A stretch of 64,000 nucleotides of DNA from Candidatus Levyibacteriota bacterium (GTDB lineage Bacteria; Patescibacteriota; Microgenomatia; Levybacterales; UBA12049), in NCBI GenBank assembly GCA_963716145.1, contig OY970292.1, positions 661,171 through 725,170 on the forward strand. The letters are read 5' to 3'. Below are positions 12,930 to 39,132 of the stretch, in pieces. The first letter of the stretch is position 1; every line of letters begins with the position of its first letter. Under the pieces are notes generated by a model, which had not been told where the DNA came from, searched no databases, and saw only the letters and a program-made list of their open reading frames with translations. The position numbers and the translations under genes were made by a program.

Positions 12930-12994
12930 TAATAACTCATAACAAATAACGATAACAACATGTGTTATAAGTAATCAGTCATAAGTTATTAGTC
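12930..12994. promoter_or_regulatory. ATAAC heptad array followed by inverted GTTAT heptads (ataactc ataacaa ataacg ataacaa ... gttataa gtaatca gtcataa gttatta), directly upstream of the 13004 start codon
   Basis: Same composite element recurs at 35081-35179 and 39071-39132. Confidence 0.5.
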
Positions 12995-13003
12995 GGAAAA
13001 ATC

Positions 13004-15163
13004 ATGAATACAGCCAAAAGAGAAATAACAGCATACCTCGAAAACATAAGTCTATTTGTAATAGGCGCTTTCCTCGTCCTCCTGCCTATTCTTTTTCTAA
13101 CAAATACTACTGATGCTTTTGTATTCCCCAAACAAATTGCTTTAAGTATTGCTATTGGCTTATTCAGTCTTTTCTTCGCTGTCAAAACAGTAAGCGAAGG
13201 AAAATTAAAATTCAGAACTTCTTCTTTTGATGCGCCTGTTGCACTATTTATAGTTGTCGCATTTCTCTCAGCTATTCTCAGCCGTAACCGTTATGACTCC
13301 TTGATTGCTTTTGTCCCCCTTTTCTTTACAGGTATTTTGTACTTTGCAATTGTTAACCTCGTAAAACGTGAAAAACAGTTACTTTTTGTTCTCTCCAGCC
13401 TTATCTTGGGGGCTGTTTTGTCTTCAGTTGTCAGTATCTTTTCATTTTTAAAAGTATATCCCCTGCCCTTTCCAAACACCCAAGTTCAACAATTTACAAC
13501 TTTGGGTTCACCGCTTGATCAGGCCCTCTATCTTGCCCTAGTCCTTCCTATAACAGGATATTTTATCTATGCATTTTCTTCCTCAATCAGATCAGGAAAA
13601 GAGTCTGCTCACACTCCATTTGCCAAACACGAAAAAAGGAATTCAACTCCTGTAATCGGCTTTAGCATAGCTTTTCTGATAATTGCCCTGTCATTGGGAA
13701 TAACTATATATATGCTTACCACTTCACAAAAACCTCTTATCCTTCCTTTTGAAACTGGAATTCAGACTGGCTTCGCAGCTATTTCACAAGATACGGGATC
13801 AGTCATAAAAAGCATCTTCCTGGGATCTGGTTTTGGCACATACTTGTCAGACTTTACCAGATTCAAACCAGCTGCTTACAATGCCAATCCAAATCTGTGG
13901 TCCTTTATATTCTTCCGTTCATCAAGCTTTGTGCTTGAGCTTTTAGCAACCACCGGATTACTTGGACTTGGTTCGTTTCTTTTCCTGGTCTTCAAGATCG
14001 TAAAGGCTCGCAACGCATTCCTACCACTTATTGTTGCTGTGATTGCCGCATTCCTCCTTCCCTTCTCTTTTACCCTTGTGGCTCTTTTCTTTGTTCTTCT
14101 GGCAATTTTTGCAGTCGTACTGATTCACGGTAATCCTGAAAAGTTTGCGGAAAGCGAATTCTACCTTGTGACCTTAAAACATGGACTCTTCGCCTTCAGA
14201 CCAGAGGGAGAAAACATCAGATTAAACGACTCAGAAAAGAAATTCAGCTTGATACTGCCTATTCTTTTCTTTATTGTAACTCTAATAATTGTTGGTTATC
14301 CACTATTCCTGACAGGAAGCTTTCTGATTTCTGATCTTACTTTTCAGAGATCGTTGGTGGCTGCATCCAAAAATAACGGACTTGAAACATACAATCTTCA
14401 GAATGCTGCGATTCAGCAATTCCCATACCGTGATATATACTATAGAAGCTTCTCGCAAACCAACATTGCGCTTGCGAACTCTTTGGCCAGCAATCAGCGC
14501 GAAAGCAAGGCAAGTCCTTCCGCACAACTTCAGCAAAATATCACAACTCTTATCCAACAATCAATTAATGGAGGCAGAACAGCAGTCGCTATATCTCCTA
14601 TGACCGCATTTAACTGGAACAATTTATCATCAATCTATCGGAGTCTGATCGGCTTTGGGGAAAATGCAGACCGCTTTACACTTGTTACGGCACAGCAGGC
14701 AATCGCACTGGACCCAAACAACCCTCAGCAATATCTTGATCTTGGAGGCGTATACTTCCAATTAGGGCAATATGATGAAGCCATAAGACAATTTCAATTC
14801 GCAATCAACTTAAAGCAGGACTATGCAAATGCCTACTATAACTTGGGTCATGCTCTTGAGGCTAAGAAAGACTATAAGAACGCGGTCGCAGCCTACCAAG
14901 TAGTCCAAAACATTGTAGCTAAGGACAAAACCAATGCTGACAAAATCAAAGCTGAGATAGAGGCACTCCAGAAAAAAATAGCCAGTGGTGATACCGAAAC
15001 AGCAACAGATACTGCCACAGCAACTCCAAGCGCCGATCTAAATGTAAAAGATAAAGCTAGCACTACTCTTCCTGAGACTGATCCACAAGTTAAAATCCCA
15101 GGTCCTAGCGACAGCCCAACTCCAGCTCCTTCTAAAGCGGTCTCACCTACCCCATCCCTGTAA
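13004..15163 (+). CDS. Polytopic membrane protein, O-antigen ligase/polymerase-like with C-terminal TPR repeats
   Basis: ~12 predicted TM helices in the N-terminal 450 aa; TPR-like ..YLDLGGVYFQLGQYDEAIRQFQFAINLKQDYANAYYNLGHALEAKKDYKNAVAAY..; Pro/Thr/Ser-rich tail. Confidence 0.55.
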   Translation: MNTAKREITAYLENISLFVIGAFLVLLPILFLTNTTDAFVFPKQIALSIAIGLFSLFFAVKTVSEGKLKFRTSSFDAPVALFIVVAFLSAILSRNRYDSLIAFVPLFFTGILYFAIVNLVKREKQLLFVLSSLILGAVLSSVVSIFSFLKVYPLPFPNTQVQQFTTLGSPLDQALYLALVLPITGYFIYAFSSSIRSGKESAHTPFAKHEKRNSTPVIGFSIAFLIIALSLGITIYMLTTSQKPLILPFETGIQTGFAAISQDTGSVIKSIFLGSGFGTYLSDFTRFKPAAYNANPNLWSFIFFRSSSFVLELLATTGLLGLGSFLFLVFKIVKARNAFLPLIVAVIAAFLLPFSFTLVALFFVLLAIFAVVLIHGNPEKFAESEFYLVTLKHGLFAFRPEGENIRLNDSEKKFSLILPILFFIVTLIIVGYPLFLTGSFLISDLTFQRSLVAASKNNGLETYNLQNAAIQQFPYRDIYYRSFSQTNIALANSLASNQRESKASPSAQLQQNITTLIQQSINGGRTAVAISPMTAFNWNNLSSIYRSLIGFGENADRFTLVTAQQAIALDPNNPQQYLDLGGVYFQLGQYDEAIRQFQFAINLKQDYANAYYNLGHALEAKKDYKNAVAAYQVVQNIVAKDKTNADKIKAEIEALQKKIASGDTETATDTATATPSADLNVKDKASTTLPETDPQVKIPGPSDSPTPAPSKAVSPTPSL

Positions 15164-15440
15164 TAAAGCTAAAATAAGCTAACTTTGCTTAACCGAAGGT
15201 TGAAATAATAATAGAGATTATAGTCTGCTTATGGATTGCTACAGTGATATTGCTCCTGCAATAAGTTACATTGATCCAGCTAAAAAACTTAGAGCTGATA
15301 TAACTGATGATGGGAACGTGAATCAGTTTGACTACAATCTTTTCCTCAGGGAGTTGACCAATATAAGCGGAGAGTAACTGAAAAAGAATAGAGACATGAT
15401 TTGCATCATATCTCTATATCAAAATATATACTAGTATATA

Positions 15441-15743
15441 CTATTGTCTATTTTGTCTAAAACAGTCTCGACAAAGAACTGGTTTATCGCCTCTTGGTTC
15501 AAAAGGTACAGTGTCGTCTTTTCCACAGTTTGAACACTTTATTGGGAAAGATTGTCTTGGTCCTCGGTCACCACCGCCGCCTCCGCCTCCACCGTTGAAG
15601 TTTGCACGAGCTTTTGCCCGGCAATCTTTACAGCGAAGTGGTGCGTTGAAGCCTTTTTCCTGGTAAAATTCCTGTTCTTCGGCTGTCCAAGTAAACTCGG
15701 CGCCGCAGTCTTTACATTGAATTGTTTGGTTTGTAAATGCCAC
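15441..15743 (-). CDS. Tandem zinc-ribbon protein (two CxxC..CxxC units with a poly-Gly linker)
   Basis: CKDCGAEFTWTAEEQEFYQEKGFNAPLRCKDCR and CSNCGKDDTVPF..CRDCF; GGGGGGGG linker. Confidence 0.6.
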   Translation of the reverse strand: MAFTNQTIQCKDCGAEFTWTAEEQEFYQEKGFNAPLRCKDCRAKARANFNGGGGGGGGDRGPRQSFPIKCSNCGKDDTVPFEPRGDKPVLCRDCFRQNRQ

Positions 15744-16018
15744 TTAAGATTCACCCCCTTTTTGTTTCATATTTTCTGTAATCCTAAGTGACTAAAGTGA
15801 AGAAATTTCTTGCAAGCCTTAGATTCTCTGGAATACTGATTGCTAACAGATTATGAGCATCAATAAATATTGATAATCAAAATCTATCTGCATTATACCA
15901 CAGTATATTTGCCAATGTCCATTTGTCATTTGCCATTGATTTCCGATTTAACAATTTGGTAATTGAAAATAAAATATAAATGGAAAATGGAACCTGGAGA
16001 ATGGAAAATAAAGCGCAT

Positions 16019-16684
16019 CTACTGGCTTGGAAGTGCCGTAGGAGCAGTTGTGGCCTCAGGAGCAGCAGTTGGTGCCTCCCCAGTTGGTCCGCTTGGTGTT
16101 GGACTTGGGCCAATATTGATCGGCGCTACATTGATAATCTTATTTTTGGATGGGCTGTAAAGAATTGCCTTTTTTGACTGGGTATAAATAAGTACCTTAT
16201 CGCCATTTACAGCTTTTGCGAAAAATGCCTGATTCTTGAGTTTGGCATTATCAGTGACAGTTGCAATTGTCGGGGTTTCGCTGGCAGGAAGATCAATTAG
16301 CTTCCCGACTTTATCAACAAGCTGTTTTATTTCAGTTTTGGATACTTCCTGAGGATTTTTGAAGTTTTTTAACTGCTCTTGTGACTGCCTATAAAGGAAA
16401 AAACTGTATGCAGATGCACCAATAGCAATAATCAATAAAATAATCACTATCCGCCCTCCTACACCCTTTAATTTGCCGGTCTTTTTATTGTTACCAACTG
16501 AGACTTCTTTGTCAACTATTTCTGTCATAATTTCAGATTTAGGAATACTTTCTTCAACCGGTTTAGAAAATGCGCTTTCTTTAACTCCTGCTTCGGACGC
16601 GTCTGACGTAGCTGGAGAATCTGTGAAAGTCTTCTCGGGGATTGATTTTTTTCCAAATTTTGCTGAGGGTGCTCGCTTTGCCAT
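16019..16684 (-). CDS. Single-pass membrane protein, hypothetical (low-complexity cytoplasmic N-terminus, TM, Pro/Thr-rich C-terminus)
   Basis: TM IVIILLIIAIGASAYSFFLY; no recognisable catalytic motifs. Confidence 0.45.
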   Translation of the reverse strand: MAKRAPSAKFGKKSIPEKTFTDSPATSDASEAGVKESAFSKPVEESIPKSEIMTEIVDKEVSVGNNKKTGKLKGVGGRIVIILLIIAIGASAYSFFLYRQSQEQLKNFKNPQEVSKTEIKQLVDKVGKLIDLPASETPTIATVTDNAKLKNQAFFAKAVNGDKVLIYTQSKKAILYSPSKNKIINVAPINIGPSPTPSGPTGEAPTAAPEATTAPTALPSQ

Positions 16685-17000
16685 AAAATCTCTCCTATAT
16701 TCAGGTTAGCTAATTAATAATCGAGTGTCAAGCTCTAGCAAGCTCAGCTATAACTTGTTTTTTATGCAAAGAACAAATACCGTGAGTATATTGCTGTCGT
16801 TTTTTTAAAGGTATACGAGCTTTTGATCCGCACCATGCGCAAACCCAGATAAGTTTTGTTAATTTATTTTGCATATTTGCTTTCATGTTTTTAATTTGGC
16901 TTTTGGCAAAATTAAATAACTACTTTGAATAGCAGCAAAACGTTATGTATATTTACTTTTATGCTCCGCCAAAGTTTCATACTTCTTACCTCCTTTCTCT

Positions 17001-19646
17001 TTAAGGTGTCGGGCTGGGCGATATTATCAACCCATCCCCCACTTGGATAGCAGTCCAGGAAAAATTCATATCGCTATCCGCATTCTTGTTAAGAACAATT
17101 GAAAAGCCTTTGCTGCTGCGCTTAGTCAGAATGAATTGAATATTTTTAGAAAAGAGATCTTTATCAAGTTTTTCCTCGCAAGCGCTTATTCCGGCAGATG
17201 CATTACAATCTCCATTACTTACCTGCTGATCAAACTCAGATTGATTTAACTTAACTCCGATAAGACTTGCATTGATAACCGGATCAAACTGATATTCTTT
17301 ACCAAACAGAACATCAACATGATCTCTATCCTTTTTGACAACTACATATCCGGCTGTATCCTTATTAAAAGTAGTAGTTCCTTCTATAACAACGTCTTTA
17401 TGGAAAGTAGCATTGTCTAGGAATTCGGCAAGCTTGGTAACTATCAAATTCTTGGTCATTACAGTATCAATAACATTTAGAATTCCCTCAACCAAACCAT
17501 TACCTTTGACACGAAGGTCAGCTGACACAGTCGCTGATCCATCAACCCTCAATCCTTCTAATACCATAAGCCCGGACGAGGAAGAAGTCGGGCTAGTACT
17601 TGATCCCAAGACAGATAGATTGGCAGAGTTTGATGCGTTAAGGTAAGGATCTGCTGCAAATATAATAAGACTTGCTTCAAGTGATGCAACTTTTGACTTA
17701 AGATCTGAAAACTGAGAGCTAATATCAGTTAACTTGCTATCTAATCCATCAACTTTTCCCGATACAGACACATGGGCTGAAGAACTGGAAACTTGTTGGC
17801 TAAAGCTAGCAGAATCAAATCCAACTAATCCGCTCAGGCCAGGTTGAGCAGAAGAGGTAGCTGAAGGAGTCGCATTTTCCAGCTTAGTTAAGCGTCTGAC
17901 TATGTCTCCAAGTGTCCAGGCGAGATCCTTTTTGGGAGCCGCAGGGGGAGTACCACCAAGAGCCACAACTTCAGCAGCAGGATCAGTGTTTGGCAGAACT
18001 AAGTTTCCGCTAGCATCAAGCGTAAGATTAGCCAGGAGATTGTTGGGGTCATACCAGATTGGATGCACTAAGACTTTTATAGTACCTATCCCTGAACCAT
18101 TATAAGCTTCAAGTGCCCGCCCGACTATCTCACCGGCTTGAGTAGTTTTTGCACCAACTCCGGGGATATCTGAAAGACTAATTGGGTCACCGGGTTGGAT
18201 CGAGCCATTCTGAGTAGATACTTTGGTTATAATCTGACCACTCAAACCAACAAGACTATTGGTTTGGGCGTAATCATTATCACAGTTGTTGTCATCTGTC
18301 TGGCAAAGCGGACCGTTACCGATAAATCCAGGATTTCTGGAAACAACCCCAACCAGAGCAGTTGAACCGGTTGCCCTGATCACAGAATTTGCATGTGTTG
18401 TATCAAGCATCACAATATCACCCTCAGCTGGTTTGGCGCTGGCATTTCCGTCGAGAAAATACTCGGCATAATCAGCAGCTGTTGTGGTATAGGCTACTGC
18501 ACTGGCGCCACCCTGGATTTTTCCGGCCACTGTGCCTGCTCCGGCAAAAGCGACAAAGTAGTTACCCGTAGTACGTGAAGTATTGGCTGTACCAATGTTA
18601 ATCAATAGACCATCAGAACTACTACCTGGTGCTCCGGCTGAGGTTGCTGTTGATAAGTTTTTGATCTGGGCGATGTAACCGGTACCATTGGTTCCCTGGA
18701 CATCTAGCAGGAAGCCTGGATTGGTCACGCCAATCCCCACATTGCCAGATGAGTTAATTATCAATCTTTCGGTGGCATCTAAAGCTGAGGCATTGGCTAT
18801 TACAAAATTACCGGTACTTCCGCGGTAGCCGATTGAATATCTTGCTGTACCGTTTTCACGGAAGTTAACAAAAGACTGGTCACCGCTGGCAGAATCAATC
18901 CGAACAGCAGCAGCAGCAGCACTTGATATATGAAGTTGCGCTCCTGGCGCTGTGGTCCCGATGCCCACGTTGCCACCTACATAGGCATCAGAGTTAACTC
19001 TCAAGTTGCCATAGACGCGGGCAGTACTTGCGCCGTCATCAAGAATATCAATAGAGCCAAGCCTAAATGAATTAACATGTGCAGTGCCATTAATCTCAAG
19101 TAGATATCCAGGATTGGTGAGACCGATGCCGACATTGCCGGCACTAGTTACACGTACCCGTTCTGTTGTTCCGCTGAAGATGCCAAGATCCATTGCTCCA
19201 CTGGTTGCCGGTGCAATTCCAGCCAGAGATATGGTAGAAGTAGCTGCTAAACTGTTGAATTTTAGTTGACCATAGCGAATGATCGAAACGTCATCAGTAT
19301 TATTGATACTAATTGTGGGTGCATTTCCAACAGTGCTGCCATTTGCTCCAGCAACAGCAAGTTTGTCTGTCGGACCCGTAGTGCCGATGCCCACGTTGCC
19401 GGATCCCAGAATTGTCATTGCATCTACAGGTGTACCTGCTGTTCTGAGGCGGAAGTTAATGCTTGTTGCCGCACTATCAAACCTGTTATCTATGAATGAT
19501 TGTCCGGTTGTGGTTTTATGCCATATATCAGTACCATTTGAAGCATCAGAACCGCTTCTAAGCAGAATGCCTGCGTCGCGTGAAGAAGATGAAGAATTAA
19601 TCTCGAGTATTCTACTCCCATTCGCGCTAACAAAGTTGTTTGGCAA
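17001..19646 (-). CDS. Giant repeat surface protein, C-terminal part (GNVGIGTTxP repeats plus the shared conserved domain ..ADYAEYF..GDIVMLD..VHPIWYDPNN..)
   Basis: Overlaps the 3' end of 19490-23635 by 157 nt in a different frame. The upstream ORF's last ~60 aa look like out-of-frame translation, so this is probably one gene broken by a frameshift. Confidence 0.6.
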   Translation of the reverse strand: MPNNFVSANGSRILEINSSSSSRDAGILLRSGSDASNGTDIWHKTTTGQSFIDNRFDSAATSINFRLRTAGTPVDAMTILGSGNVGIGTTGPTDKLAVAGANGSTVGNAPTISINNTDDVSIIRYGQLKFNSLAATSTISLAGIAPATSGAMDLGIFSGTTERVRVTSAGNVGIGLTNPGYLLEINGTAHVNSFRLGSIDILDDGASTARVYGNLRVNSDAYVGGNVGIGTTAPGAQLHISSAAAAAVRIDSASGDQSFVNFRENGTARYSIGYRGSTGNFVIANASALDATERLIINSSGNVGIGVTNPGFLLDVQGTNGTGYIAQIKNLSTATSAGAPGSSSDGLLINIGTANTSRTTGNYFVAFAGAGTVAGKIQGGASAVAYTTTAADYAEYFLDGNASAKPAEGDIVMLDTTHANSVIRATGSTALVGVVSRNPGFIGNGPLCQTDDNNCDNDYAQTNSLVGLSGQIITKVSTQNGSIQPGDPISLSDIPGVGAKTTQAGEIVGRALEAYNGSGIGTIKVLVHPIWYDPNNLLANLTLDASGNLVLPNTDPAAEVVALGGTPPAAPKKDLAWTLGDIVRRLTKLENATPSATSSAQPGLSGLVGFDSASFSQQVSSSSAHVSVSGKVDGLDSKLTDISSQFSDLKSKVASLEASLIIFAADPYLNASNSANLSVLGSSTSPTSSSSGLMVLEGLRVDGSATVSADLRVKGNGLVEGILNVIDTVMTKNLIVTKLAEFLDNATFHKDVVIEGTTTFNKDTAGYVVVKKDRDHVDVLFGKEYQFDPVINASLIGVKLNQSEFDQQVSNGDCNASAGISACEEKLDKDLFSKNIQFILTKRSSKGFSIVLNKNADSDMNFSWTAIQVGDGLIISPSPTP

Positions 19647-22600
19647 AGTCGCTCCAGGAGTGGTTGTGCTGATACCAACGTGGCCCCTTGGAAAATAGCT
19701 GCATAAGTAGTATCAGCCGTGTTGGCGGTAGTAGCGTCTACATATAGTCCGGTTACTGTGTTAGCCAGTGATCCTGCATCGGTGAATGAGATATGCTGAC
19801 CATAAAGAGTATTGGCATTGGTTGTTTGACTATTGGTAATTGCCAGTTTATTACCATAGTATGTTTGAGATGCTGCAGTACCGGCAATAGTATATGTTCC
19901 CAAAAGTCCATAGGCACCTGAAGTTGTGAGGTTATTTGTGCTCAAAGAGAGCCCACCGGTACTTGGAGTCTGAAGATCTGCAAACACACTGCCATCGGTC
20001 TGGGTCAAACGGAGTTGAGGATTTGAAGCATCCAGGACATCAAGCTTCCGGTCAGGCCCAGTGGTCCCGATGCCCACGTTGCCGTTTGAGAGTATGGTCA
20101 TTCTTGTATTAAATCCATCTGCTGCCCTGGTATTAAAAAGTAAATCTCCATAATTATTGGCTAGATCAATCATCTTACCTACGATGCTTGCCGCTGTAAC
20201 TCCAGCCTCCTGAAACCGCAAGCTGGCATATCCATTTGCCGATCCTGCTGCTTGATCAATCTCCAAAGCAGCTGTTGTAGATTCGCCAAGATTGGAAGTC
20301 GCTCCGGATGTATTAGTTGATCGGACCGCTGTAGTGCCTAAAGCATTGACTGTAAAGCGATTGGAGCTAGATTCCTGAAGAGTTATTAAATTAGAGCCTG
20401 TGCTTGATAACGTATTGGTTATATTAAGTTTTATGGCGGAAGGATTGGCTGAACTGACATTCCATGTTCCCGAAAGATCAAGTAGAGGCTGGGTATTTGC
20501 TGAGCCGGTTAAAGAGTAACCAGATACAGTGATTCCTGTTTGATTAGCAGTAGATTGGACCAAATGTAAAAGGCTGGTTGGATTAGTAATCCCAATCCCC
20601 ACGTTGCCCGCAGAGTTTATGCGCATACGCTCGTTGGTGTGGCCATTGGTAGCAAACATAATTGGTGCGTTCGCTCTTGTGATAATCCCAAGGCCTCCCG
20701 ATAAGCCGCTGTCTGCGGAAAGATACCCGGCATCCTGGACAAATACTCCGGTTGTGGTAAATCCTGTACCGAGTGCACCAATGCGAAGTGAGTCTGTTAC
20801 TGTAGTGCCATTTCTGACTTGAAAGACAGCTTGAGCACCTGTACCTGCACTTACATTTTCGATAACACCAGACGTAGCAGTATTCTGATCCAGCTTAACG
20901 TGGAGCAACTCGGCTGGCGCTGTTGTCCCAATACCCACATTACCTGAGGAGTTGATGCGCAGTGATTCCACTCCTCCGTTTGCAAACGCTATAGTTGACG
21001 CAGCTGGTCTCCACATACCGGTTGTAAGGTCCGAGGTCCAGGCATAGGAAGGAGCAGTTACCGTATCTGATGCTTGACCCAAGAATTGAGTATCAGTATC
21101 TATGCTTGTTGTTGCTTTAATGTTTCCTACAATATGAAGTTTATTTGTAGGGTTGGTGATGCCAATCCCCACGTTGCCATTAGCCAGGATAGTTAATTTC
21201 TCAGTAGGTGCGTTATCCGCAGTACCTGATCCTCCTGCTGTGGCTGTAAAGAAATGAAGAGCAGATGAGCCTGTGCCCGTGGAGGTACCTGATTTGAGGG
21301 TCAAATCTCCACCGGCCAGGTTGGCTGTACCTGCTATTGCTCCACCTGATGAGATGGTAAATCCCTGTCCTGCGGTAGCAGCAGTGGTATTCCTATCCAT
21401 ACCAAATGTTCTCGCTGCGGTACCGCCCAGAGCAAGTATCGAGCCTGGCGCAGTCGTCCCAATCCCCACGTTGCCATTAGCCAGAATCCTCATAACTTCA
21501 CTGTAGGCTCCTCCTGCAGCCCGGAGCTGAAATGCAAAATTGGAGTCTGCAGAGCCATTGGTCGGTTGAATCAGGTTGAGTACGCCTATCGCGTTATTAC
21601 TTCCGTTATCATTTGATGCCTGTAGCCGCAGACTACTAATAGCTCCGTTACTACCGCCATTGGCTTTGTTGTAAAAGAATGAGGTACCCGTTGTTATGGC
21701 AGTGGTACTATACGCAGTCGCGTCTGCGGTATCAATTTCCAATTTAGACGCCGGAGCCGTGGTCCCGATGCCCACATTACCTCCTTGGAAAAGGGCTGAG
21801 TAAAAGGTAGTATTGGCGAGTGTCCCGGGATCAGCGATATTAAGACCTACCCAGGTACATGCTCCCCCGGTACAGGCTGTTTTGGTAGGTATTGCAATAT
21901 TGAGGGCATTGATCGCTTTTGTGCCGGTTGCACCGGAGGTGCTTATAGTTGAGGCAATGTTAATACCATTTACTATGCTGTTTCCACTTGTATTTGAGGC
22001 GCCATCAATGACAGACAAATTAACAAGGCTTCCCGTATTACCTGCACCAGGATCATATGTTCCTGTATTTGCGATGTTTAATAAGCTGCCTGTTGTGATA
22101 CCTGTTTTGGTAGAGGTAATATTGACGGCTTTACCGCTTGTTAAGGCATTGGTTTCAATATTCAAGAAGTTGCCCGTGGTCAACGAAGTAGATTGCAGGT
22201 CCAAGACACCAAGCGTATTGGCTCCATTGCCGATCGTTGTTGCCGAATTGTTGGTGAGACTCAATGTCGCTGCAGTATTTGAGCTACCAATCAAATCCAA
22301 AAGCCCGCCGGGCGCAGTCGTGCCAATGCCTACGTTGCCAGAGAAATATTTATCACCTGCGCCCAGTGACTGATTGGCGAGACTGACAATACCAGGTACG
22401 GTTGCAGAAGCTACCTCCAGATTGCGGCTTGAGGATTCGGTAAATACTAGATCGCTCCAACGGACATTATTATCAGCGGCACCATGATAATTAACTAGAA
22501 ACAGTAATTTTACATACGCTGTACCATAAGAGAATAAGCTAGCTGTACCTACACCCGCAGTATCAAGACTACCAATATAACCTTCATAGCGAGTCCATGC

Positions 22601-23635
22601 ATTTGGCACCGTAGTATTCGCGGTCGTAATATATTTATAAGTACCACCCGACTGATTGTTCCTCACTGCTGTACCGGCAGCAATGGTAGGACCAGCCCAC
22701 GGAACACGCAACGTAATGACATTACCGCTAATGCCGGTAGTATCCCAAGCCCCAAGGCTGCCGTTACTGCTATAGTTACTCGAGTAAGTACGCGAATAAG
22801 TATAGTTTGGATAAGTATATCCTTTAGCATTTGTATACCCATACCAGATAAAATTACGAGTATGACCAGTACCACTGGTACTCCAGCCTGTTGCGTCTGT
22901 CAGGGTTATGGTGTTATCTCCAGGGTTGAGTTGAGCAGCCAGGGTTGTATCAGTTGAGCCGCTATACTTCAAATATGATTCTGGAGCAATTGAATTACCA
23001 TCAATATCATATTGTGCTACGCCAAGATATTGTTTGTTGGCTGCATTGAAGTTGGCCCCGCCGGTATCTCCAGACTTCCCCCAGCCAATCAAACGATAAT
23101 ACTTCTCAGGATCTACAGGTATGAGTTCATCGTTGAGTCTTGCTTGTTGACTAACATTGACCCGGAATGATCCTGCACCTCCATGTGTTTCCACAGAATC
23201 AAAGGTAAAGGTCGAGAAGTTATAGTTATTAAGAAGCAGTCCTGACCCGTTGGTAATAAGGTTTTCCGTACGGGACTGGACATAGTTGGTGGTCGCCAGT
23301 AGGTTAGTCCCCACGCCGGCCGCGCCGCCGGCAGTTGTAGTAGCCGCACCGGAAAAGTTGGCTGTACCGCTTACATCCAGTTTGTAGACCGGAGCAGTCG
23401 TCCCAATCCCCACATTCCCATTAGCCAAGACTGTAAGTGCCTCAACTCCTGCTGCTGAAACATGGAAAGGCTTGAGAGTTGAACTGGCTGCTGTTGTTAG
23501 ATTCAACAGATAGCCTGTTCCGCTGTTGGAAGCTGTGTCTGTCAGGTTAAATAGATTGGTTGTAGATGTAGCATTTCCGTAGGTAAAAGTTGTACTGAAG
23601 CTCGTTCCGACGCTTTGGTACATGTTGAAAGCCAA
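19490..23635 (-). CDS. Giant repeat protein (1381 aa), central part; >12 GNVGIGTT[AG]P / GNVGIGITNP repeats
   Basis: Highly regular ~45-aa repeat. No signal peptide; starts 18 nt after the stop of the signal-peptide-bearing ORF 23653-24798. Confidence 0.65.
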   Translation of the reverse strand: MAFNMYQSVGTSFSTTFTYGNATSTTNLFNLTDTASNSGTGYLLNLTTAASSTLKPFHVSAAGVEALTVLANGNVGIGTTAPVYKLDVSGTANFSGAATTTAGGAAGVGTNLLATTNYVQSRTENLITNGSGLLLNNYNFSTFTFDSVETHGGAGSFRVNVSQQARLNDELIPVDPEKYYRLIGWGKSGDTGGANFNAANKQYLGVAQYDIDGNSIAPESYLKYSGSTDTTLAAQLNPGDNTITLTDATGWSTSGTGHTRNFIWYGYTNAKGYTYPNYTYSRTYSSNYSSNGSLGAWDTTGISGNVITLRVPWAGPTIAAGTAVRNNQSGGTYKYITTANTTVPNAWTRYEGYIGSLDTAGVGTASLFSYGTAYVKLLFLVNYHGAADNNVRWSDLVFTESSSRNLEVASATVPGIVSLANQSLGAGDKYFSGNVGIGTTAPGGLLDLIGSSNTAATLSLTNNSATTIGNGANTLGVLDLQSTSLTTGNFLNIETNALTSGKAVNITSTKTGITTGSLLNIANTGTYDPGAGNTGSLVNLSVIDGASNTSGNSIVNGINIASTISTSGATGTKAINALNIAIPTKTACTGGACTWVGLNIADPGTLANTTFYSALFQGGNVGIGTTAPASKLEIDTADATAYSTTAITTGTSFFYNKANGGSNGAISSLRLQASNDNGSNNAIGVLNLIQPTNGSADSNFAFQLRAAGGAYSEVMRILANGNVGIGTTAPGSILALGGTAARTFGMDRNTTAATAGQGFTISSGGAIAGTANLAGGDLTLKSGTSTGTGSSALHFFTATAGGSGTADNAPTEKLTILANGNVGIGITNPTNKLHIVGNIKATTSIDTDTQFLGQASDTVTAPSYAWTSDLTTGMWRPAASTIAFANGGVESLRINSSGNVGIGTTAPAELLHVKLDQNTATSGVIENVSAGTGAQAVFQVRNGTTVTDSLRIGALGTGFTTTGVFVQDAGYLSADSGLSGGLGIITRANAPIMFATNGHTNERMRINSAGNVGIGITNPTSLLHLVQSTANQTGITVSGYSLTGSANTQPLLDLSGTWNVSSANPSAIKLNITNTLSSTGSNLITLQESSSNRFTVNALGTTAVRSTNTSGATSNLGESTTAALEIDQAAGSANGYASLRFQEAGVTAASIVGKMIDLANNYGDLLFNTRAADGFNTRMTILSNGNVGIGTTGPDRKLDVLDASNPQLRLTQTDGSVFADLQTPSTGGLSLSTNNLTTSGAYGLLGTYTIAGTAASQTYYGNKLAITNSQTTNANTLYGQHISFTDAGSLANTVTGLYVDATTANTADTTYAAIFQGATLVSAQPLLERLCQTTLLARMGVEYSRLILHLLHATQAFCLEAVLMLQMVLIYGIKPQPDNHS

Positions 23636-23652
23636 ATTCGCAGTTGGGGCAA

Positions 23653-27813: not shown

Positions 27814-27909
27814 CTATGTTGCAATTTGCAATATATAGACTTATTCAAGGCTTCAAAACTGTATTTTACGCATTGACATTGCGTAAAGATACAAACTATT
27901 ATTAATATA

Positions 27910-30397: not shown

Positions 30398-30457
30398 GGC
30401 TTAACGTTTGCCAAAAAAAACTCCTTCTTGTATAATTCTGGCTACTGCCCCTCATGA

Positions 30458-31072: not shown

Positions 31073-31087
31073 TCGCCTACCATTTTG

Positions 31088-31158
31088 TGGACCCGAGGGG
31101 AGTCGAACCCCTGACCCATCCATGCCATGGATGTATGTTACCACTATACCACGGGCCC
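31088..31158 (-). tRNA. tRNA-Ala (anticodon GGC)
   Basis: Minus-strand sequence GGGCCCG-TG-GTAT..; anticodon stem CATCC/GGATG with loop AUGGCAU (anticodon GGC); T-arm AGGGGTTCGACTCCCCT; G3:U70 identity pair present; discriminator A; no encoded CCA. Confidence 0.75.
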
Positions 31159-31278
31159 TTTTTGCGAAGCAAAAAACTGAGAATTTAGAACTAAGAATAA
31201 TATTATACTATAAATTATTCTTTTCTGTTCTTAGTTCAGGGTTCTATGTTCCAAGTTAGTTTCGCACCTTGCGCGAAA

Positions 31279-32415: not shown

Positions 32416-32566
32416 GGGTAAGATGTAACTTTAACAAAAAACTGAGGCCGATGTCAAATCCCCAACCTGAAAATTGGTCAGCAAAGTTAATAAAAATTAA
32501 TCCTCAAACAATTCCCAAATCAATTCTAAATTATATGTAGACTATTGACGTTATTACCTGTTAGTA

Positions 32567-32586
32567 TATGTTAGTATACTAACATA
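32567..32586. promoter_or_regulatory. Perfect 20-nt palindrome TATGTTAGTATACTAACATA (with an adjacent TTAGTATA direct repeat) in the rho-peptidase intergenic region; operator-like
   Basis: Exact inverted symmetry read directly; overlaps a TTGACG-N16-TATGTT promoter-like arrangement on the + strand. Confidence 0.35.
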
Positions 32587-32643
32587 TCGAGGCTGGGGAA
32601 TGATAATATATGAAAAATTAATTGGGAGTTCTTGGAAGTATGA

Positions 32644-34257: not shown

Positions 34258-34496
34258 AAAATATATGAATTAAATTAATTAAGGAATTCTTTGTTGTTGG
34301 CATTTAAGATAAGTTTTCGATATTATTTTACAGTAGAATTTTGAAACGCGAATCTACGGGATTGGTTACAGAAGATAATCACTTGTAACCAGACGTATTA
34401 CACCATATATTCGCCGCTTTGTCAACAATCAAAACTGTTTCAACACTCTTACATTGGCGTAGTTTTGCGTACGATTTTGCGTAGTTCTGCGATTTA

Positions 34497-34895
34497 CTAG
34501 TCAAGGAGTGTAGGGAGAGAAAATTTGGTAATAGATTCTCCCAGAAATACATACGTCACAGCATTTAAAATTATAAATGCGGAAAGCGATATCACAAGGC
34601 CGATGATAGCGGCACGTATATGAGCCCTCGCTGCGTCGATCTTGGCCTTATCTCCACCCGAAGAAATATACCTAATTCCCCCATACACAAGATAAATGAG
34701 GGTCAGAGATATAGCCAATATAATTAGAACGGAGACAATATTGCCAACCACTCCCCCTGCCTTGTCTGCTTTTAGCGCGCAGAGACTGGAAAATTCCGTT
34801 CCCGTAGGACACAGGTCTGCATAAGCTATCCGTGTTTGGAATAATAAAACTAAAAAAGTACTTAATGATAAAAATGAGCGGTATAGTTTTTTCAT
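34497..34895 (-). CDS. Small secreted two-TM protein, TrbC/VirB2-type conjugative pilin-like
   Basis: Signal peptide followed by two hydrophobic helices separated by a short polar loop (..VSVLIILAISLTLIYLVYGGIRYISSGGDKAK..AAIIGLVISLSAFIILNAV..); 132 aa; architecture of T4SS pilins. Confidence 0.4.
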   Translation of the reverse strand: MKKLYRSFLSLSTFLVLLFQTRIAYADLCPTGTEFSSLCALKADKAGGVVGNIVSVLIILAISLTLIYLVYGGIRYISSGGDKAKIDAARAHIRAAIIGLVISLSAFIILNAVTYVFLGESITKFSLPTLLD

Positions 34896-35045
34896 TGTCT
34901 ATATCTATAGTAGCCTTATAAAAAACCACTTGTCAAGGAGTCCAACTAACTTTATGACGAAGACCCGCCGATAATCGCAGCATGAACCGCGCTACGAATA
35001 GTAGGTAAGACGAATGCTAAGATATGGCTGGGTCAATGTCCCTCT

Positions 35046-35075
35046 TGACAAGGTCCTATAATGTATGCTATAGTT
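35046..35075 (+). promoter_or_regulatory. Putative promoter TTGACA-N18-TATAGT upstream of the ATAAC element and the 35190 gene
   Basis: Hexamers read directly. Confidence 0.3.
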
Positions 35076-35080
35076 CTCCA

Positions 35081-35179
35081 ACTGATAACTAATAACAGAT
35101 AACAAGTTATGACGACTGATAACTCATAACAAATAACAATAACGAAATGTTATCAGTTATAAGTAATCAGTTATAAGTT
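35081..35179. promoter_or_regulatory. ATAAC/GTTAT heptad-array element (two tandem units) immediately upstream of the 35190 start codon
   Basis: actgataactaataacagataac...ctgataactcataacaaataacaataac...gttatcagttataagtaatcagttataagtt; homologous to 12930-12994 and 39071-39132. Confidence 0.5.
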
Positions 35180-35189
35180 TAACCAACCT

Positions 35190-36062
35190 ATGAATAAATC
35201 AATACTTAAAGTCTCAGTAACAGCTCTTACTCTTCTTGCTCTTTCAGCAGGAGTCTCTTTTGCAGCTTCTACTAACTATGGTACAAATCAATGCCAGCCT
35301 ATCTATGGTGGTGGAGAATCATGTGTTAAGACTCCTCAGTTTGAGATCAATAAAACTGTAAAGAATCCTCAAAGCGGTGCTTTTGTTGATAACCTTGGAG
35401 TATCTGACGCAAAGTACAGAAGTGGTGAAACAGTTATCTTTAAGATCACTGTCAGAAATACAACAGGTGATACCCTTAAAAATGTTGTAGTTAAAGATAT
35501 CCTGCCTGATTTTGTAGACTTTGTTGAAGGTATGGGTGGAACATTTGATCAGAATTCAAAAACCTTAACAATCAAGATTGACTCCCTGGCAAAGGATGAA
35601 TCACGCGACTTTTTCGTTAAAGTTAAAGTAAGAGGAAATGATAAGCTCCCAAGTGACCAGAACATAGTCTGTGTTGTTAACCAATCTATTATTACAGTAG
35701 ACAACAAAACAGGACAAGATAATGCATCAGTTTGTATTGAGAAAGGTGTTCCAACACCTACTCCTACAAACCCTGGTAACCCTAACAATCCGGATCAGCC
35801 AAGCAATCCTAGCAACCCTAGCAACCCAACACAGCCTGGTAATCCAAGCAATCCAACAAATCCTGGTAATCCAACTACAACTAAAGGTGGATTCCCAACC
35901 AATCCCGCTACAGTTAACCCACCAACAACTAAAGGAGGATTGCCTGTCTATCCACCAACCAAAGCAACAAAAACACCTGATACAGGACCAGAAAGCTTAG
36001 CTTTGTTTGGACTGATACCTAGTGCAATTGGGGGAATGTTCCTCAGACGGAAGAGTAAATAA
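35190..36062 (+). CDS. Secreted surface protein with Pro-rich wall-spanning linker and C-terminal sorting-signal-like tripartite motif
   Basis: Signal peptide; PTPTPTNPGNPNNPDQPSNPSNPSNPTQPGNPSNPTNPGNP linker; C-terminal ..KTPDTGPESLALFGLIPSAIGGMFLRRKSK (polar motif, hydrophobic segment, basic tail) as in sortase or archaeosortase substrates, but the motif is not canonical LPXTG. Confidence 0.5.
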   Translation: MNKSILKVSVTALTLLALSAGVSFAASTNYGTNQCQPIYGGGESCVKTPQFEINKTVKNPQSGAFVDNLGVSDAKYRSGETVIFKITVRNTTGDTLKNVVVKDILPDFVDFVEGMGGTFDQNSKTLTIKIDSLAKDESRDFFVKVKVRGNDKLPSDQNIVCVVNQSIITVDNKTGQDNASVCIEKGVPTPTPTNPGNPNNPDQPSNPSNPSNPTQPGNPSNPTNPGNPTTTKGGFPTNPATVNPPTTKGGLPVYPPTKATKTPDTGPESLALFGLIPSAIGGMFLRRKSK

Positions 36063-36174
36063 GCTCCGAATTCTCAATTCTCAATTTACAATTTTCATTG
36101 AATGCTTCAATGTTTAAATTTTCAAAATCGTGTCATTGTAATTTGATTGAAAACTGAAAATTAAAAATTGAAAA
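36063..36174. repeat. AT-rich palindromic terminator-like element (gaaaattgaaaa family) between convergent stops
   Basis: caattttcattgaat...tttgattgaaaactgaaaattaaaaattgaaaatta; same subfamily as 12010-12124. Confidence 0.55.
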
Positions 36175-38484
36175 TTAGCCTTCCACCTTCTTCATATACC
36201 TAGTCCGTGAATTCTGTATCACCTTTTCCCTGTTCTGGGTTACTGACTGAGGCAATGGAAGCGTATATGCAAGGAAAGGAGCCTGGGTGATACTATCAAT
36301 CGCCAGCTTCACAATAGCCTGATAATTTCCAAGTGCGAGCAAATCTTCCTCTTTGAATCTCTCGGTAAATTCCCTTGCCATATAGCCTGCATCCTCAGCC
36401 CCCACCAAAAATGAAGCCATTGTGCCCGCGTTTCCGAAGATCGCGCCTCTGACCTCCTGCGGAATTTGGGAAATATATTGGTTGGCCAGAATCAGGTTCA
36501 AACGGTATTTACGGGCTTCCGACAGAATTTTGATAAAACTGGTAGTTGCGAAATTCTGGAACTCATCAACATATAGATAAAAATCCCGCCGGTCTTTTTC
36601 GGCCAAAGAAACCCTATTCATGGCAGCAAGTTGGATTTTGGTGATAAACATCGCGCCCAAGAGGGCTGAGTTGTCCTCCCCTAGCCTCCCCTGCGAAAGG
36701 TTTAATAAAAGAATCTTCCCTTCATTCATGATTTTTTCGATATCGATTGTGGATTTGGGATTTTGGATAATGTTTCTGATAAAACGGCTAGATATAAACT
36801 GCCCTACTTTATTTAGAATTGGTGAGATCGACTCAGCTCTGAGCTTGTCGGTCATATTGGCAAACTCATTTTCCCAAAAGCTTTTCAAAATCGCGTCATC
36901 TATGTGAGTCATCGCGTTTTTGCGAAAAGCTTCATTCGTCAGCATTTCAGGCACCATCAGAAGTGTTGGATTGGGCAGCCTGACAACAGTCATAAGTGTA
37001 TTACGCAAAATATACTCAAGTCTAGGTCCCCATGACTCTCCATATATCTTATGGAAAGTGGCCACAATTCCCGATACAACAAGTTCCATTTGATATGAAT
37101 CTGTCACCTCAATCGGGTTGAGAGAGAACGCATGGGTCAAATCCGATGGGTCAAGATAGATCACATCGTTAATCCTATAGGACGGTATGTAGTCCAAAAT
37201 CGTCTCACATAAATCTCCGTGCGGATCTATGATACACATCCCCTTGCGGTTACGAATATCGCTTATCGCGAGATTGGCAATAAGGGTGGACTTACCTGTT
37301 CCTGTTTTTCCGATTATGTACATATGGCGTCTTCTGTCTGATGCTTTGATCCCAAAGGTTGTCATTCTGTTCTTGAACTCAGTCCTGGCAAAAAAATTGA
37401 TTTCCGATTTCTCATCAGTTGATAAGCCTTCACTGATCGGAAGCTTTTCAGGAGGCTCGGAAAGTATAGTCTTGTGCCAAGAAATGTTGTGGATTTTGGC
37501 AAGCTTGTCGGTTGGGAAATGAAACATTGTGGCTATTTCCTGAATGTTGAAGATCTGTCTAGGCATGAAAAAACGTGACCTTTTAAGCATGGCCTTGATC
37601 AGCCTCTCCCTCTGCCAGAGAAAAACACGCCTGAAAATGAGGCTGTTGCCGGTCGGGTTGTTGTATGAAGAAAAGCTGTTGGCTATTTGGCGTATCAGAT
37701 GCTCTGAGCGTTCTGGTGTTTCTGAGTTGACGGCGATTCTTATGGCTGTTTTAAAGCCATTTGCCGCTATCTTTTCCATAATCACCTTGGAATATGGGTT
37801 GGCGTGCTCAACGCCTGCCGCATCGGCTCGCTTGCCAGCCGCACGCTCTCCCTTTGCCTGCCAGCCGTTATCAATCGGTCTGAGTAAAAATTGTATACTA
37901 ATTTTATCGGTTGGCTGGGACTTAGAAAGCAGACCCAGAACTGAGGCTAGGGAGTCAACATCCTTAAATTCGGTGAAAGTACGGATCGGATAAAGCGGAT
38001 CCGCGGTAAGTTTCATCTGTCCGACATAGAGCGTGTTCTTCGATGCTGGATCTTGGGTCTTGGTTCTTGGAATACCGCTCTCCGAAGATCCATGATCTAA
38101 GACCCTTGATCTGGCAAGGTTCTCCGAAGAACTAAAATCTAAGACCTTTAATCCAAGCACTTCCGGCAGATAATCCTTCACCTTGGTGATCAGAGCCTTG
38201 GGATAAACAGCCACGATTTGCCCTTCTATAAAGGTCTGGTACTTGCTGGGAACTGAGACGAAAAAATGAATAGCCTGATCAATCACGCCCAACTCAAGGC
38301 TGATAGGAACTCCCAAGCCCCAAAAGGGCAAAATCAGCCTCTTCAGGCTGGCAATTGAGGCCAGGAACTGCACCATGGACTCAGGCGTCTCCTCGCCTGT
38401 CCGGGAAGTCCGGACATCCAAAAGGACACGGTCCGAGACTAAATCCCCAGATTTAGATTTCTTATTTAACAATTTATTGACCAT
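36175..38484 (-). CDS. P-loop ATPase of the TrwB/TraD/VirD4-VirB4 (type IV secretion, AAA_10/DUF87-like) superfamily
   Basis: ..MYIIGKTGTGKSTLIANLAISDIRNRKGMCIIDPHGDL.. closely parallels TrwB-type GATGTGKS...IVDPNGD. Walker B ..FYLYVDEFQNF.. and ..ARKYRLNLILANQ.. are also present. No N-terminal TM helices are seen, which is unusual for a T4SS coupling protein. Confidence 0.55.
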   Translation of the reverse strand: MVNKLLNKKSKSGDLVSDRVLLDVRTSRTGEETPESMVQFLASIASLKRLILPFWGLGVPISLELGVIDQAIHFFVSVPSKYQTFIEGQIVAVYPKALITKVKDYLPEVLGLKVLDFSSSENLARSRVLDHGSSESGIPRTKTQDPASKNTLYVGQMKLTADPLYPIRTFTEFKDVDSLASVLGLLSKSQPTDKISIQFLLRPIDNGWQAKGERAAGKRADAAGVEHANPYSKVIMEKIAANGFKTAIRIAVNSETPERSEHLIRQIANSFSSYNNPTGNSLIFRRVFLWQRERLIKAMLKRSRFFMPRQIFNIQEIATMFHFPTDKLAKIHNISWHKTILSEPPEKLPISEGLSTDEKSEINFFARTEFKNRMTTFGIKASDRRRHMYIIGKTGTGKSTLIANLAISDIRNRKGMCIIDPHGDLCETILDYIPSYRINDVIYLDPSDLTHAFSLNPIEVTDSYQMELVVSGIVATFHKIYGESWGPRLEYILRNTLMTVVRLPNPTLLMVPEMLTNEAFRKNAMTHIDDAILKSFWENEFANMTDKLRAESISPILNKVGQFISSRFIRNIIQNPKSTIDIEKIMNEGKILLLNLSQGRLGEDNSALLGAMFITKIQLAAMNRVSLAEKDRRDFYLYVDEFQNFATTSFIKILSEARKYRLNLILANQYISQIPQEVRGAIFGNAGTMASFLVGAEDAGYMAREFTERFKEEDLLALGNYQAIVKLAIDSITQAPFLAYTLPLPQSVTQNREKVIQNSRTRYMKKVEG

Positions 38485-38884
38485 ATTTATATATTATCAT
38501 TGTTCTTTGTCTGCACAAAGAACCAAAAACTAAGCGGTATCCCGCCCGTTCGCTGCGTAATGCATGAAAAATCTTATGAGCGCATCAGGGGGATTCCTCG
38601 GCAGAGCAAAGCTATGATCGAGGAGGGGGTGAAATCACCCGATAAGTGAAGAAGATTTCGAAAGCATGGAGCGAGACTAGGGCGCAGTTTTGCTGCCAAA
38701 AGTGTGAAAAAAGAGTTTGTCTCCGCAAAAGAACAGAGAAAAAATTATTAAAAAAATTTTGCATTTTGACTTTTAAGTTTTGAATTGAAGCTCGAATTTT
38801 GCGTTGTATACAAATATAGTACCAGAGTCGGGAATTTTCTCCAAGTGATTAAATTATTTATACGCTATAGGCTGAAATTGCCAC

Positions 38885-38913
38885 TTGACAAATGTAATAA
38901 AATTTGATACTAT
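38885..38913 (+). promoter_or_regulatory. Strong sigma70-like promoter TTGACA-N17-TACTAT with extended -10 TG, reading into non-coding sequence
   Basis: ttgaca aatgtaataaaatttga tactat read directly; no ORF follows for >300 nt. Confidence 0.4.
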
Positions 38914-39070
38914 AAGTCGCTTTCTTTTTAAAAGCCCGTTTTGTGCCCGTAAGCCAAAACCAGCTCAAAAAGTCAGCACGTATCTGTAAGGTATAGTTCG
39001 GATTTTACTGAACTCTGCTTTGCAGAGGCACTTTAACAAGGCACACAAGAATTTAGTCGCAGACGCTCAG

Positions 39071-39132
39071 ACTGATAACTAATGACAAATAACAGATAAC
39101 TGTTATGAGTTATAAGTAATAAGTTATGAGTT
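39071..39132. promoter_or_regulatory. Third copy of the ATAAC/GTTAT heptad-array element, at the left edge of the high-GC island
   Basis: actgataactaatgacaaataacagataactgttatgagttataagtaataagttatgagtt. Confidence 0.45.

Follow-up and report, generated by a model that had tools for sequence, protein, structure and literature searches.

The stretch of DNA studied here, referred to as the window, comprises 64,000 nucleotides of a Candidatus Levyibacteriota bacterium (assembly GCA_963716145.1, contig OY970292.1, positions 661,171 to 725,170 of the forward strand). It has about 40% GC and carries genes for a type IV secretion system (T4SS) pilin, a coupling protein, Rho and giant repeat proteins; the best protein homologues are found in Levybacteria or Microgenomates-type genomes of the candidate phyla radiation (CPR), and the genome measures 1.14 Mb. 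Three loci of the window contain imperfect palindromes of 60-100 nt, in which three to four NNATAAC units are followed by a short loop and three to five GTTATNN units. These palindromes, hereafter ATAAC elements, and the leaders in which they reside are the subject of this analysis.

Reading of the sequence confirmed the layout of NNATAAC units followed by GTTATNN units that an earlier note on this DNA had described at the three loci and, together with the motif count and the repeat grouping given below, established a real dispersed family. Copy 1 (12926-12994, + strand) consists of four NNATAAC units, a loop and four GTTATNN units, i.e., ACTAATAAC-TCATAAC-AAATAAC-GATAAC, a 7-nt loop, and GTTATAA-GTAATCA-GTCATAA-GTTATTAGT; it lies in the leader of a gene for a membrane protein with tetratricopeptide repeats (TPR). 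Copy 2 is composite: a partial element corresponding to a left arm, with three ATAAC units and one GTTAT (copy 2a, 35081-35114, + strand), is followed by a complete palindrome (copy 2b, 35115-35179, + strand) that ends 10 nt before the ATG at 35190. Copy 3 (39069-39132, + strand) lies in a conserved ~340-nt leader, at a slot whose hairpin varies, upstream of a high-GC island. The motif ATAACNNATAACNNATAAC, with one mismatch at most, has nine matches, all within the three loci, and none in 100 dinucleotide-preserving shuffles, and both arms were grouped as families (D14 and D16) by repeat finding. Six copies from three genomes can be aligned with a mean column identity of 76%, and the aligned copies have irregularities in common, namely a fourth unit of only 6 nt and, in the right arm, a unit that reads GTAAT; therefore, descent or conversion connects the copies, and they did not arise independently by chance. 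Similarity is greater among the copies of a single genome than between orthologous sites of different genomes. It should be noted that the regularity is limited, as degenerate units occur (ATGAC, GTAAT, GTCAT) and one spacing is 6 nt. Each arm has 3-5 units at 7-nt spacing (one unit being 6 nt long), which makes it a tandem simple sequence repeat (SSR) of three or more units; near-identical units, the mark of recent slippage, are not found in the ATAAC family, in which the two spacer positions vary, and sometimes the core as well. The outer stems are complementary through different bases in different copies (ACTAAT/ATTAGT in copy 1 versus ACTGAT/ATCAGT in copy 2b), and the inner spacer mismatches are common to the copies. 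Some copies have a central 7-1-7 dyad, e.g., AGATAAC-T-GTTATGA in copy 3, and the termini ACTRATAAC...GTTATYAGT are found in two of the three window copies and in a related genome (L128).

The genes and promoter-like sites around the three copies were analyzed along with their counterparts in relatives. The TPR gene (13004-15163, + strand) encodes a 719-aa membrane protein with C-terminal TPR repeats (Pfam matches), with orthologues of 60-78% identity in Levybacteria-like CPR genomes. Its putative promoter (12886-12915, + strand) contains TTGACA (12886-12891), an 18-nt spacer and a TG-extended TAACGT (12907-12915); the consensus scan did not call this site, which is recognized by conservation: the window, L127 and L128 share the TTGACA..TTTGATAACGTG block, and L126 has a variant of it. 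Copy 1 starts ~10 nt past the TG-extended -10 box conserved among relatives and ends at 12994, close to the ATG at 13004. The DUF11 gene (35190-36062, + strand) encodes a surface-repeat protein of 290 aa (Pfam PF01345, E 3.6e-14), and the gene order of Rho, T4SS pilin, DUF11 and TrwB-like genes is conserved in relatives. The promoter-like site of this gene (35045-35074, + strand; TTGACA-18-TATAGT with a TG extension) agrees with the consensus at 11 of 12 positions, nine genomes share the block TTGACAArrTCCTATAAT, and copy 2 starts 7 nt past the site. Copy 3 is located ~150 nt into the conserved leader behind the TG-extended site TTGACA-17-TACTAT (38885-38913, + strand), which L125 and L250 have kept; as the L123 alignment begins inside the -10 box, the -35 box of L123 is outside the comparison. 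Downstream of this copy, an AAGGAGG Shine-Dalgarno (SD) sequence and a TTG-start basic open reading frame (ORF) of 49 codons (39237-39404, + strand, the ORF starting at 39255) open the high-GC island, and L123, L125 and L250 have the same SD block.

All three copies are located downstream of promoter-like sites and, therefore, in putative 5' leaders, and they are not promoter carriers. Of the two locations that had been proposed, the 5' untranslated region (UTR) is supported by the putative promoters upstream, whereas the promoter itself is not, because the arrays lie downstream of the -10 boxes. Copies 1 and 2, in forward orientation, end ~10 nt before the ATG of envelope-type genes, as had been claimed, and have no GGAG-type motif; unlike them, copy 3 is ~120 nt away from its SD-bearing ORF. 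In most genes of the window, no more than 7-25 nt separate a TATAAT-like -10 box from the ATG, and an SD-type motif (GGAG, GAGG or AGGA) was found at 4 of 37 putative starts, which suggests mostly leaderless or short-leader, SD-independent initiation in the window. Among these very short leaders, the element-bearing leaders of 70-110 nt are an exception.

Two observations concern the surroundings of these leaders. A conserved TCCTATAAT box lies 6 nt after TTGACA in the DUF11 promoter region (35050-35075 in the window; also in L123, L125 and L128), with a second copy ~20 nt upstream in several relatives, an arrangement that suggests tandem or overlapping promoters. The position of copy 3 at the junction with the high-GC island, pointed out in the earlier note, is conserved in relatives. 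The island spans ~2 kb (39400-41500) with 58-73% GC, versus ~40% in the genome, behind the conserved promoter, leader and SD block, and has the same syntenic place in L123 (14500-16000) and L125 (13500-15000). A tblastx comparison between the islands of the window and the relatives found no similarity, and a Pfam scan of the island ORFs produced no matches; the island looks like hypervariable cargo behind a conserved leader.

Using synteny (Rho, pilin, DUF11 and TrwB-like genes), we recovered eight further DUF11 leaders, and four TPR leaders were recovered as well. Across the nine genomes, the DUF11 promoter block is kept and the leader content is variable: the ATAAC/GTTAT palindrome is found in four (the window, L128, L251 and L125); L123 has ATAAC units in direct orientation only, with no inverted arm; the leaders of L122, L250 and L253 are heptad-like in other ways or contain TAAC; and that of L252 is just ~20 nt long. 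Overall, the number of units ranges from 0 to 8. The TPR leader contains the element in the window and in L128; it is absent from L126 and L127, which keep the promoter, and the leader of L129 differs. Wherever the element is present in orthologous start-codon leaders, the gap between the last unit and the ATG is 10-14 nt. Thus, there are more copies in relatives, with similar spacing, contrary to the possibility that the family is confined to three copies without conserved spacing. The copy-3 leader has conserved flanks in four genomes and a slot with different contents: the same element with two extra TAATAAC units in L123, a diverged heptad hairpin in L125, and a short non-heptad hairpin in L250. 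The right arm of copy 3 and 30 nt downstream of it are 100% identical between the window and L123, whereas the neighbouring genes are ~76% identical. Elements are gained and lost between close relatives, and their arms change by whole 7-nt units, as exemplified by the extra units in L123 and by the DUF11 leaders.

Folding of the elements as RNA, a check suggested in the earlier note, predicted hairpins with z scores of -3.5 to -4.5. For the + strand of copy 1, the fold has -14.0 kcal/mol (z -3.5); for the inner element of copy 2 (2b), -17.5 kcal/mol (z -4.5); and for copy 3, -19.2 kcal/mol (z -3.9), and none of 200 shuffles was as stable as the window elements. The 112-nt fold of the entire copy 2 has -21.7 kcal/mol, with the partial left arm 2a paired with the shared right arm. 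Orthologous leaders of different sequence are also predicted to fold (L125, -18.1; L122, -14.1; L250, -14.1; L128, -19.1 and -21.8 kcal/mol). It should be noted that the repeat arrays are able to pair in several registers, and alignment columns are hence not structurally homologous. The stems are AU-rich and followed by A-rich sequence, unlike an intrinsic terminator or attenuator, and a scan of the three loci found no terminator-like site overlapping the elements. A search of Rfam 15 with the three loci and the copy-3 leader, at gathering scores and permissive E-values, returned only sub-threshold chance matches to miRNA-type hairpins.

Taken together, these data lead us to favour, with moderate confidence, the explanation that the ATAAC elements are slippage-prone heptanucleotide-repeat palindromes in gene leaders, where a 5'-UTR stem-loop tunes the expression of the downstream genes. 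Located between the promoter and a point ~10 nt before the start codon (copies 1 and 2), the transcribed element would form a 5'-proximal, imperfect, AU-rich mRNA stem-loop with periodic internal loops, which may quantitatively alter mRNA stability, processing or translation. Changes of repeat number would then give evolution a knob with which to tune the downstream genes, in the manner of the Haemophilus influenzae hmw1A hairpin that acts via RNase III. Under this model, the element would be dispensable for expression and would have no role as a sequence-specific operator. Palindromes that are slippage-prone, homogenized between copies and accommodated in tolerated leader slots fit the evidence, the imperfect 5' stem-loop being a consequence. 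Structure appears to matter at least at the copy-3 slot, because a hairpin is retained despite the replacement of sequence and because the right arm is perfectly conserved; conversely, frequent loss or replacement at the TPR and DUF11 slots indicates a dispensable, tuning-type or near-neutral role.

Several observations weigh against this explanation. The direct array in the DUF11 leader of L123 does not form a hairpin (-2.2 kcal/mol, z +0.6). In the strand test, which compares G.U with A.C mismatches, copies 1 and 2 are more stable as the minus strand, because their A.C mismatches on the plus strand turn into G.U, and copy 3 is more stable as the plus strand; since the strand preference is inconsistent, selection on the sense RNA is not demonstrated. 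The ATAAC core of 5 nt varies less than the 2-nt spacers do, and the copies have some mismatches in common; protein recognition would fit this as well. The transcription start sites of the three leaders are putative, being placed by consensus and conservation. Finally, the loss of the element in orthologues is equally compatible with neutrality and with tuning.

The latter point leads to the strongest alternative, which we consider possible but clearly less probable, namely that the elements are neutral or selfish repeats, a by-product of 7-nt slippage and template-switch bias or of copying similar to that of repetitive extragenic palindromic (REP) sequences or miniature inverted-repeat transposable elements (MITEs), with no selected effect. 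The polymorphic presence and fast turnover of the element, slippage by whole units and the lack of a strand preference between G.U and A.C mismatches are all in agreement with it, as are the occurrence of such repeats in every permissive type of site, even in frame in an ORF, and of the same repeat type in distant phyla; furthermore, stop codons in all frames would alone keep most units in non-coding DNA (PMC4679880). Arguments against neutrality are the 100% identity of the copy-3 right arm and the following 30 nt against a background of ~76% in genes, the hairpin that is kept at the copy-3 slot of four genomes although its sequence has been replaced, and the constant gap of 10-14 nt to the ATG. 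In addition, a structured leader of 60-100 nt on an otherwise nearly leaderless mRNA is unlikely to be without effect.

The ATAAC elements are accompanied by other repeats of the same period. The lag-7 self-similarity amounts to 156 windows, versus 0-10 for the other lags in the range 4-11 and none in shuffles; lag-7 windows were detected in all seven related loci, clearly in five, with only 2-4 windows in L126 and L129. At least five further 7-nt-period families are present in the window: after stop codons, in the spacer between tRNA and 23S rRNA, and inside a conserved ORF; most of them fold in the same hairpin style, with short helices interrupted every 7 nt. The AATTTTC/GAAAATT family comprises palindromes of 110-140 nt directly 3' of stop codons, three of the four between convergent genes: 3872-3985; 12005-12117 (-30.3 kcal/mol, z -5.6); 36064-36178, in the form AATTCTC/GAAAATT, right after the stop codon of the DUF11 gene; and 42509-42645, between two genes of the + strand, with a GC-rich inner hairpin (-42.2 kcal/mol, z -6.4). 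Similar elements are found at 3' ends in L128, L251 and L252, and these palindromes may be AU-rich bidirectional terminators or 3' stabilisers. An AGAACTN/NAGTTCT heptad hairpin (59699-59768, - strand; -26.7 kcal/mol, z -5.0) lies in the spacer between tRNA-Ala and 23S rRNA. Inside the conserved 1173-aa ORF, there is a hairpin of four AAGAATT and four CTTCTTG units (45237-45333, + strand), and AAATGGA, AAATTTC and AAATGGC arrays are found in its 3' part (47095-47355, + strand). The sister families also include AAATGGN and TTTGTTC/AGAACTN arrays, and some of the arrays are near-perfect (AAATGGC x4, TTTGTTC x4).

With respect to the hosts of these sister arrays, the ORF at 43924-47445 encodes a conserved membrane protein of 1173 aa, in which the in-frame arrays encode KLELRIKNQELR...FLLLTSCFLLL, SNFKCQMSNFKC and QMANGKWQM. 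Its orthologues have similar peptides at the same places (KLELRIKNQELRLS... in L123; NSKFKIQNY and ENGKWKMENGK in L125), which is reminiscent of Rickettsia palindromic elements. The match to 23S rRNA (56227-59503) spans 3277 nt, compared to 2925 nt of the model, i.e., ~350 nt more, implying insertions; no 16S gene is adjacent to the 23S gene of the window, and 23S_rRNA_IVP genes are found in related loci.

The earlier note had interpreted the arrays as iterons or operators of a multimeric regulator. Such a DNA operator array, with contiguous ATAAC heptads bound cooperatively by a small multimeric regulator that blocks RNA polymerase just past the promoter, could be modelled on the ribbon-helix-helix (RHH) protein omega/ParB of plasmid pSM19035 and its WATCACW sites, or on Fur-family proteins and TGATAAT-type half-sites. 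The heptad architecture does fit this interpretation: the unspaced 7-bp units, four or more, direct and then inverted, match those of omega (PMC9499535), the 5-nt core is kept while the 2-nt spacers vary, ATAAC cores remain in the DUF11 leaders of five of the nine genomes, and some copies have the central dyad. Other heptad operators are reported, e.g., ctx TTTTGAT and the SARP sites. An ATAAC-specific regulator is not supported, however. Otherwise conserved orthologous promoters are devoid of the element (L126, L127 and L252), and unrelated heptads or a non-heptad hairpin take its place in other orthologues; at least five other heptad families share the palindromic build and occupy 3' ends, the rRNA spacer and even coding sequence; the arrays lie past the -10 box, with no overlap with the promoter; changes occur by whole-unit slippage; and a scan of 29 different ORFs of the window detected no gene of the RHH, omega-like or Fur family. 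Because of the replacement in orthologues, the sister families in non-promoter contexts, the location relative to the -10 box and the lack of a regulator in that scan, we regard an ATAAC-specific operator as unlikely.

A broader possibility, to which we also attach little probability, is that heptad-periodic palindromes represent a distinct cross-phylum class of elements, with 5-bp helices broken every 7 nt, made or read by a dedicated 7-nt-register mechanism (a heptad-reading cold-shock, S1 or RHH-type protein, or a copying process). Such a class would include 5'-leader (ATAAC), 3'-end (AATTTTC), rRNA-spacer and in-frame ORF types, and if it exists, the ATAAC type would mark a post-transcriptional leader regulon in CPR bacteria.

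It is quite improbable that the elements act as single-stranded RNA arrays, whose sense AUAAC repeats would serve as landing sites at SD-less starts for ribosomal protein S1, a cold-shock protein or a CsrA-like factor. The unit is nearly that of the TAACTGA repeats (ATAACTG when permuted), for which such a role was proposed (PMC4679880), the arrays are forward and placed 10-14 nt before an ATG without an SD sequence, and the DUF11 leader of L123 keeps only the direct sense array. On the other hand, the predicted fold of most copies pairs the ATAAC arm with the GTTAT arm, SD-less starts are normal in this genome with or without an array, copy 3 is ~120 nt from an SD-bearing ORF, and no such binding protein is known from any organism. 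Least probable, and rejected here, is the small MITE with its own promoter that had also been suggested: the element is small, palindromic and dispersed, has terminal inverted repeats, three or four copies in 64 kb and both filled and empty sites, and an IS630-like transposase gene is located in the window (3990-5756), but the promoters are upstream of the element and conserved where it is absent (L126, L127 and L252), no sigma-70-like pair of hexamers was found within the arrays, no target-site duplication was recognizable between filled and empty sites (a comparison limited by divergence), and no sequence link between the element and the transposase was seen. The earlier note was right on location and dispersal, and largely wrong on mechanism.

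Other features of the window are as follows. The IS630/Tc1-like transposase ORF has duplicated N-terminal helix-turn-helix domains and an internal 60-nt repeat (5206-5265 and 5593-5652), and is followed by a stretch of ~30% GC (roughly 6000-7380), without an ORF of 80 aa or more except for one of 82 aa. Upstream of the TPR promoter, a pair of a PrlF-like antitoxin and a PIN toxin is encoded at 12125-12823. Three ATCAGA repeats of 8-nt period (12828-12849) are located just upstream of the 88-aa PrlF-like (VapB-like) antitoxin gene, and in L126, L127 and L128 the corresponding sites finish with an inverted TCTGA(T); these repeats are probably a toxin-antitoxin operator, distinct from the ATAAC element. 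The VapB-like/PIN pair was rejected as a binder of ATAAC, given its own conserved ATCAGA operator and its persistence in element-free genomes. Array units were also considered as -10-like pause sites and set aside, the last hexamer position being without T upon reading of the sequence. The gene for a treble-clef zinc-finger protein of 100 aa (zf_Tbcl; 15387-15793 with flanks) shows unusually strong conservation, with 85-93% DNA identity to five relatives, compared to 66-82% for its neighbours. The giant proteins (30-3876 and 17001-23635), encoded on both strands, contain many repeats that encode GNVGIGT (GGCAACGTGGGnATyGGnAC; D1-D6), irregularly spaced, mostly at 220-1100 nt.

ATAAC heptad arrays are widely distributed. 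A search for three ATAACNN units followed by GTTAT, with one genome per species, found at least 120 loci in many phyla. The hosts, among the matches listed, include the CPR phyla Falkow-, Wolfe-, Berkel-, Yanofsky- and Saccharibacteria, as well as cyanobacteria (Microcystis, Nostoc), Parabeggiatoa, Bacteroidota, Acidobacteria and others, with the same palindromic build in many of the listed loci. For 26 of the 127 matches listed, an ORF starts within 20 nt, which is only suggestive without a proper background model; among the listed matches with two or more right-arm units, none of the 40 inspected is inside an ORF of 80 aa or more. A scan of metagenomes with the conserved right arm GTTATAAGTAATNAGTNATNAGT mainly picked up heptad arrays of an unrelated type, (AAGTWAT)n, in a wide range of organisms, the ATAAC left arm being present in L135 and L183 only; these matches show how widespread heptad arrays are.

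Among the long simple repeats of bacteria, those with 7-nt units are the most common. The lineage studied here, with a genome of 1.1 Mb, very short leaders and little use of SD sequences, shows heptad repeats in an unusually ordered form: within the window, the ATAAC family is found in 5' leaders and the AATTTTC family at 3' ends, with quick turnover between relatives and retention of the slots. This is a compact natural system in which to ask whether heptad repeats tune the fate of mRNAs, for which hmw is the one worked example that we know of, and what creates the 7-nt register. For annotation, heptad arrays near start codons should not be taken as operators without further evidence. The class of 7-base repeats is already known; new is its palindromic, degenerate, leader-specific form in a CPR lineage, and a search of the accessible literature turned up no account of such palindromes from CPR bacteria.

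Among known systems, REP sequences and bacterial interspersed mosaic elements, MITEs and Rickettsia palindromic elements are short, dispersed, imperfect palindromes at gene boundaries with presence/absence polymorphism, and the Rickettsia elements also occur in frame inside ORFs, as the sister heptad families do here. We know of none of these families that is built from 7-nt tandem units, and neither a link between the ATAAC elements and a REP-associated tyrosine transposase (RAYT) or related transposase nor target duplications were found. The cyanobacterial STRR repeats, reportedly described by Mazel and colleagues in 1990, are heptanucleotide repeats. The ATAAC family, one of several 7-nt-period families in the Levybacteria-like CPR lineage, is a counterpart of STRR, of long SSRs and of the TAACTGA repeats. 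Like long SSRs and STRR, the heptad repeats have 7-nt units, a mostly intergenic location, several unit sequences per genome and variable copy numbers; unlike the near-perfect tandem arrays of the classical forms, they are short and degenerate and have inverted arms, and their places with respect to promoters and to start and stop codons are fixed. Heptanucleotides are the dominant class of long SSRs, according to the citation of Mrazek et al. (2007) in PMC4679880.

The TAACTGA heptamers of Beggiatoaceae, cyanobacteria and Bacteroidetes (MacGregor 2015, PMC4679880) occur in sets of 2-6 copies, mostly forward, a few nt from SD-less start codons, and an RNA-binding protein is suspected. The elements of the window have a near-identical unit (ATAACTC, ATAACTA, ATAACAA), with sets split by related 7-mers, and are similarly intergenic, forward and before SD-less starts (copies 1 and 2, not copy 3), with stop codons in all frames; the phylogenetic distribution is likewise scattered, and our scan also returned Parabeggiatoa, Microcystis and Nostoc. 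Unlike in the TAACTGA repeats, two of the seven unit positions are degenerate, and TAACTGA itself is not found in tandem in any of the three window copies. Furthermore, an inverted array follows here, resulting in a predicted hairpin, whereas one of the 170 sets in the BOGUAY genome is inverted; the copies, in a CPR host, belong to a dispersed family with shared irregularities; and other heptad families coexist, whereas related heptamers are rare in BOGUAY (PMC4679880).

Omega/ParB of pSM19035 binds 7-10 contiguous WATCACW heptads, direct and inverted (PMC9499535), e.g., AATCACA AATCACA AATCACT TGTGATT TGTGATT. The ATAAC arrays are also composed of contiguous, unspaced 7-bp units in both orientations, and the four direct and four inverted units reach the minimum of four that omega needs; the core WATCACW differs from NATAACN in one position. 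Omega sites overlap plasmid promoters and have an RHH gene nearby, whereas the arrays are chromosomal, lie past the -10 box and can give way to other sequences in orthologues.

For the hmw adhesin genes, RNase III dependence and phase variation were shown experimentally; there is no sequence homology between hmw and the elements of the window. In hmw, only the left arm is repetitive, with at least 10 perfect repeats, and a G-rich region forms the right arm. Nevertheless, this heptamer hairpin of Haemophilus appears to be the closest analogue of the ATAAC element: the (ATCTTTC)n repeat of H. influenzae hmw1A is transcribed in the 5' UTR, forms a long hairpin and is cleaved by RNase III, a system that sets adhesin expression and phase variation, with expression modulated by the number of repeats (PMC12721329), and, like hmw1A and hmw2A, the elements described here combine a heptanucleotide SSR, a putative 5' UTR, a surface-protein gene and a long imperfect hairpin predicted from the repeat.

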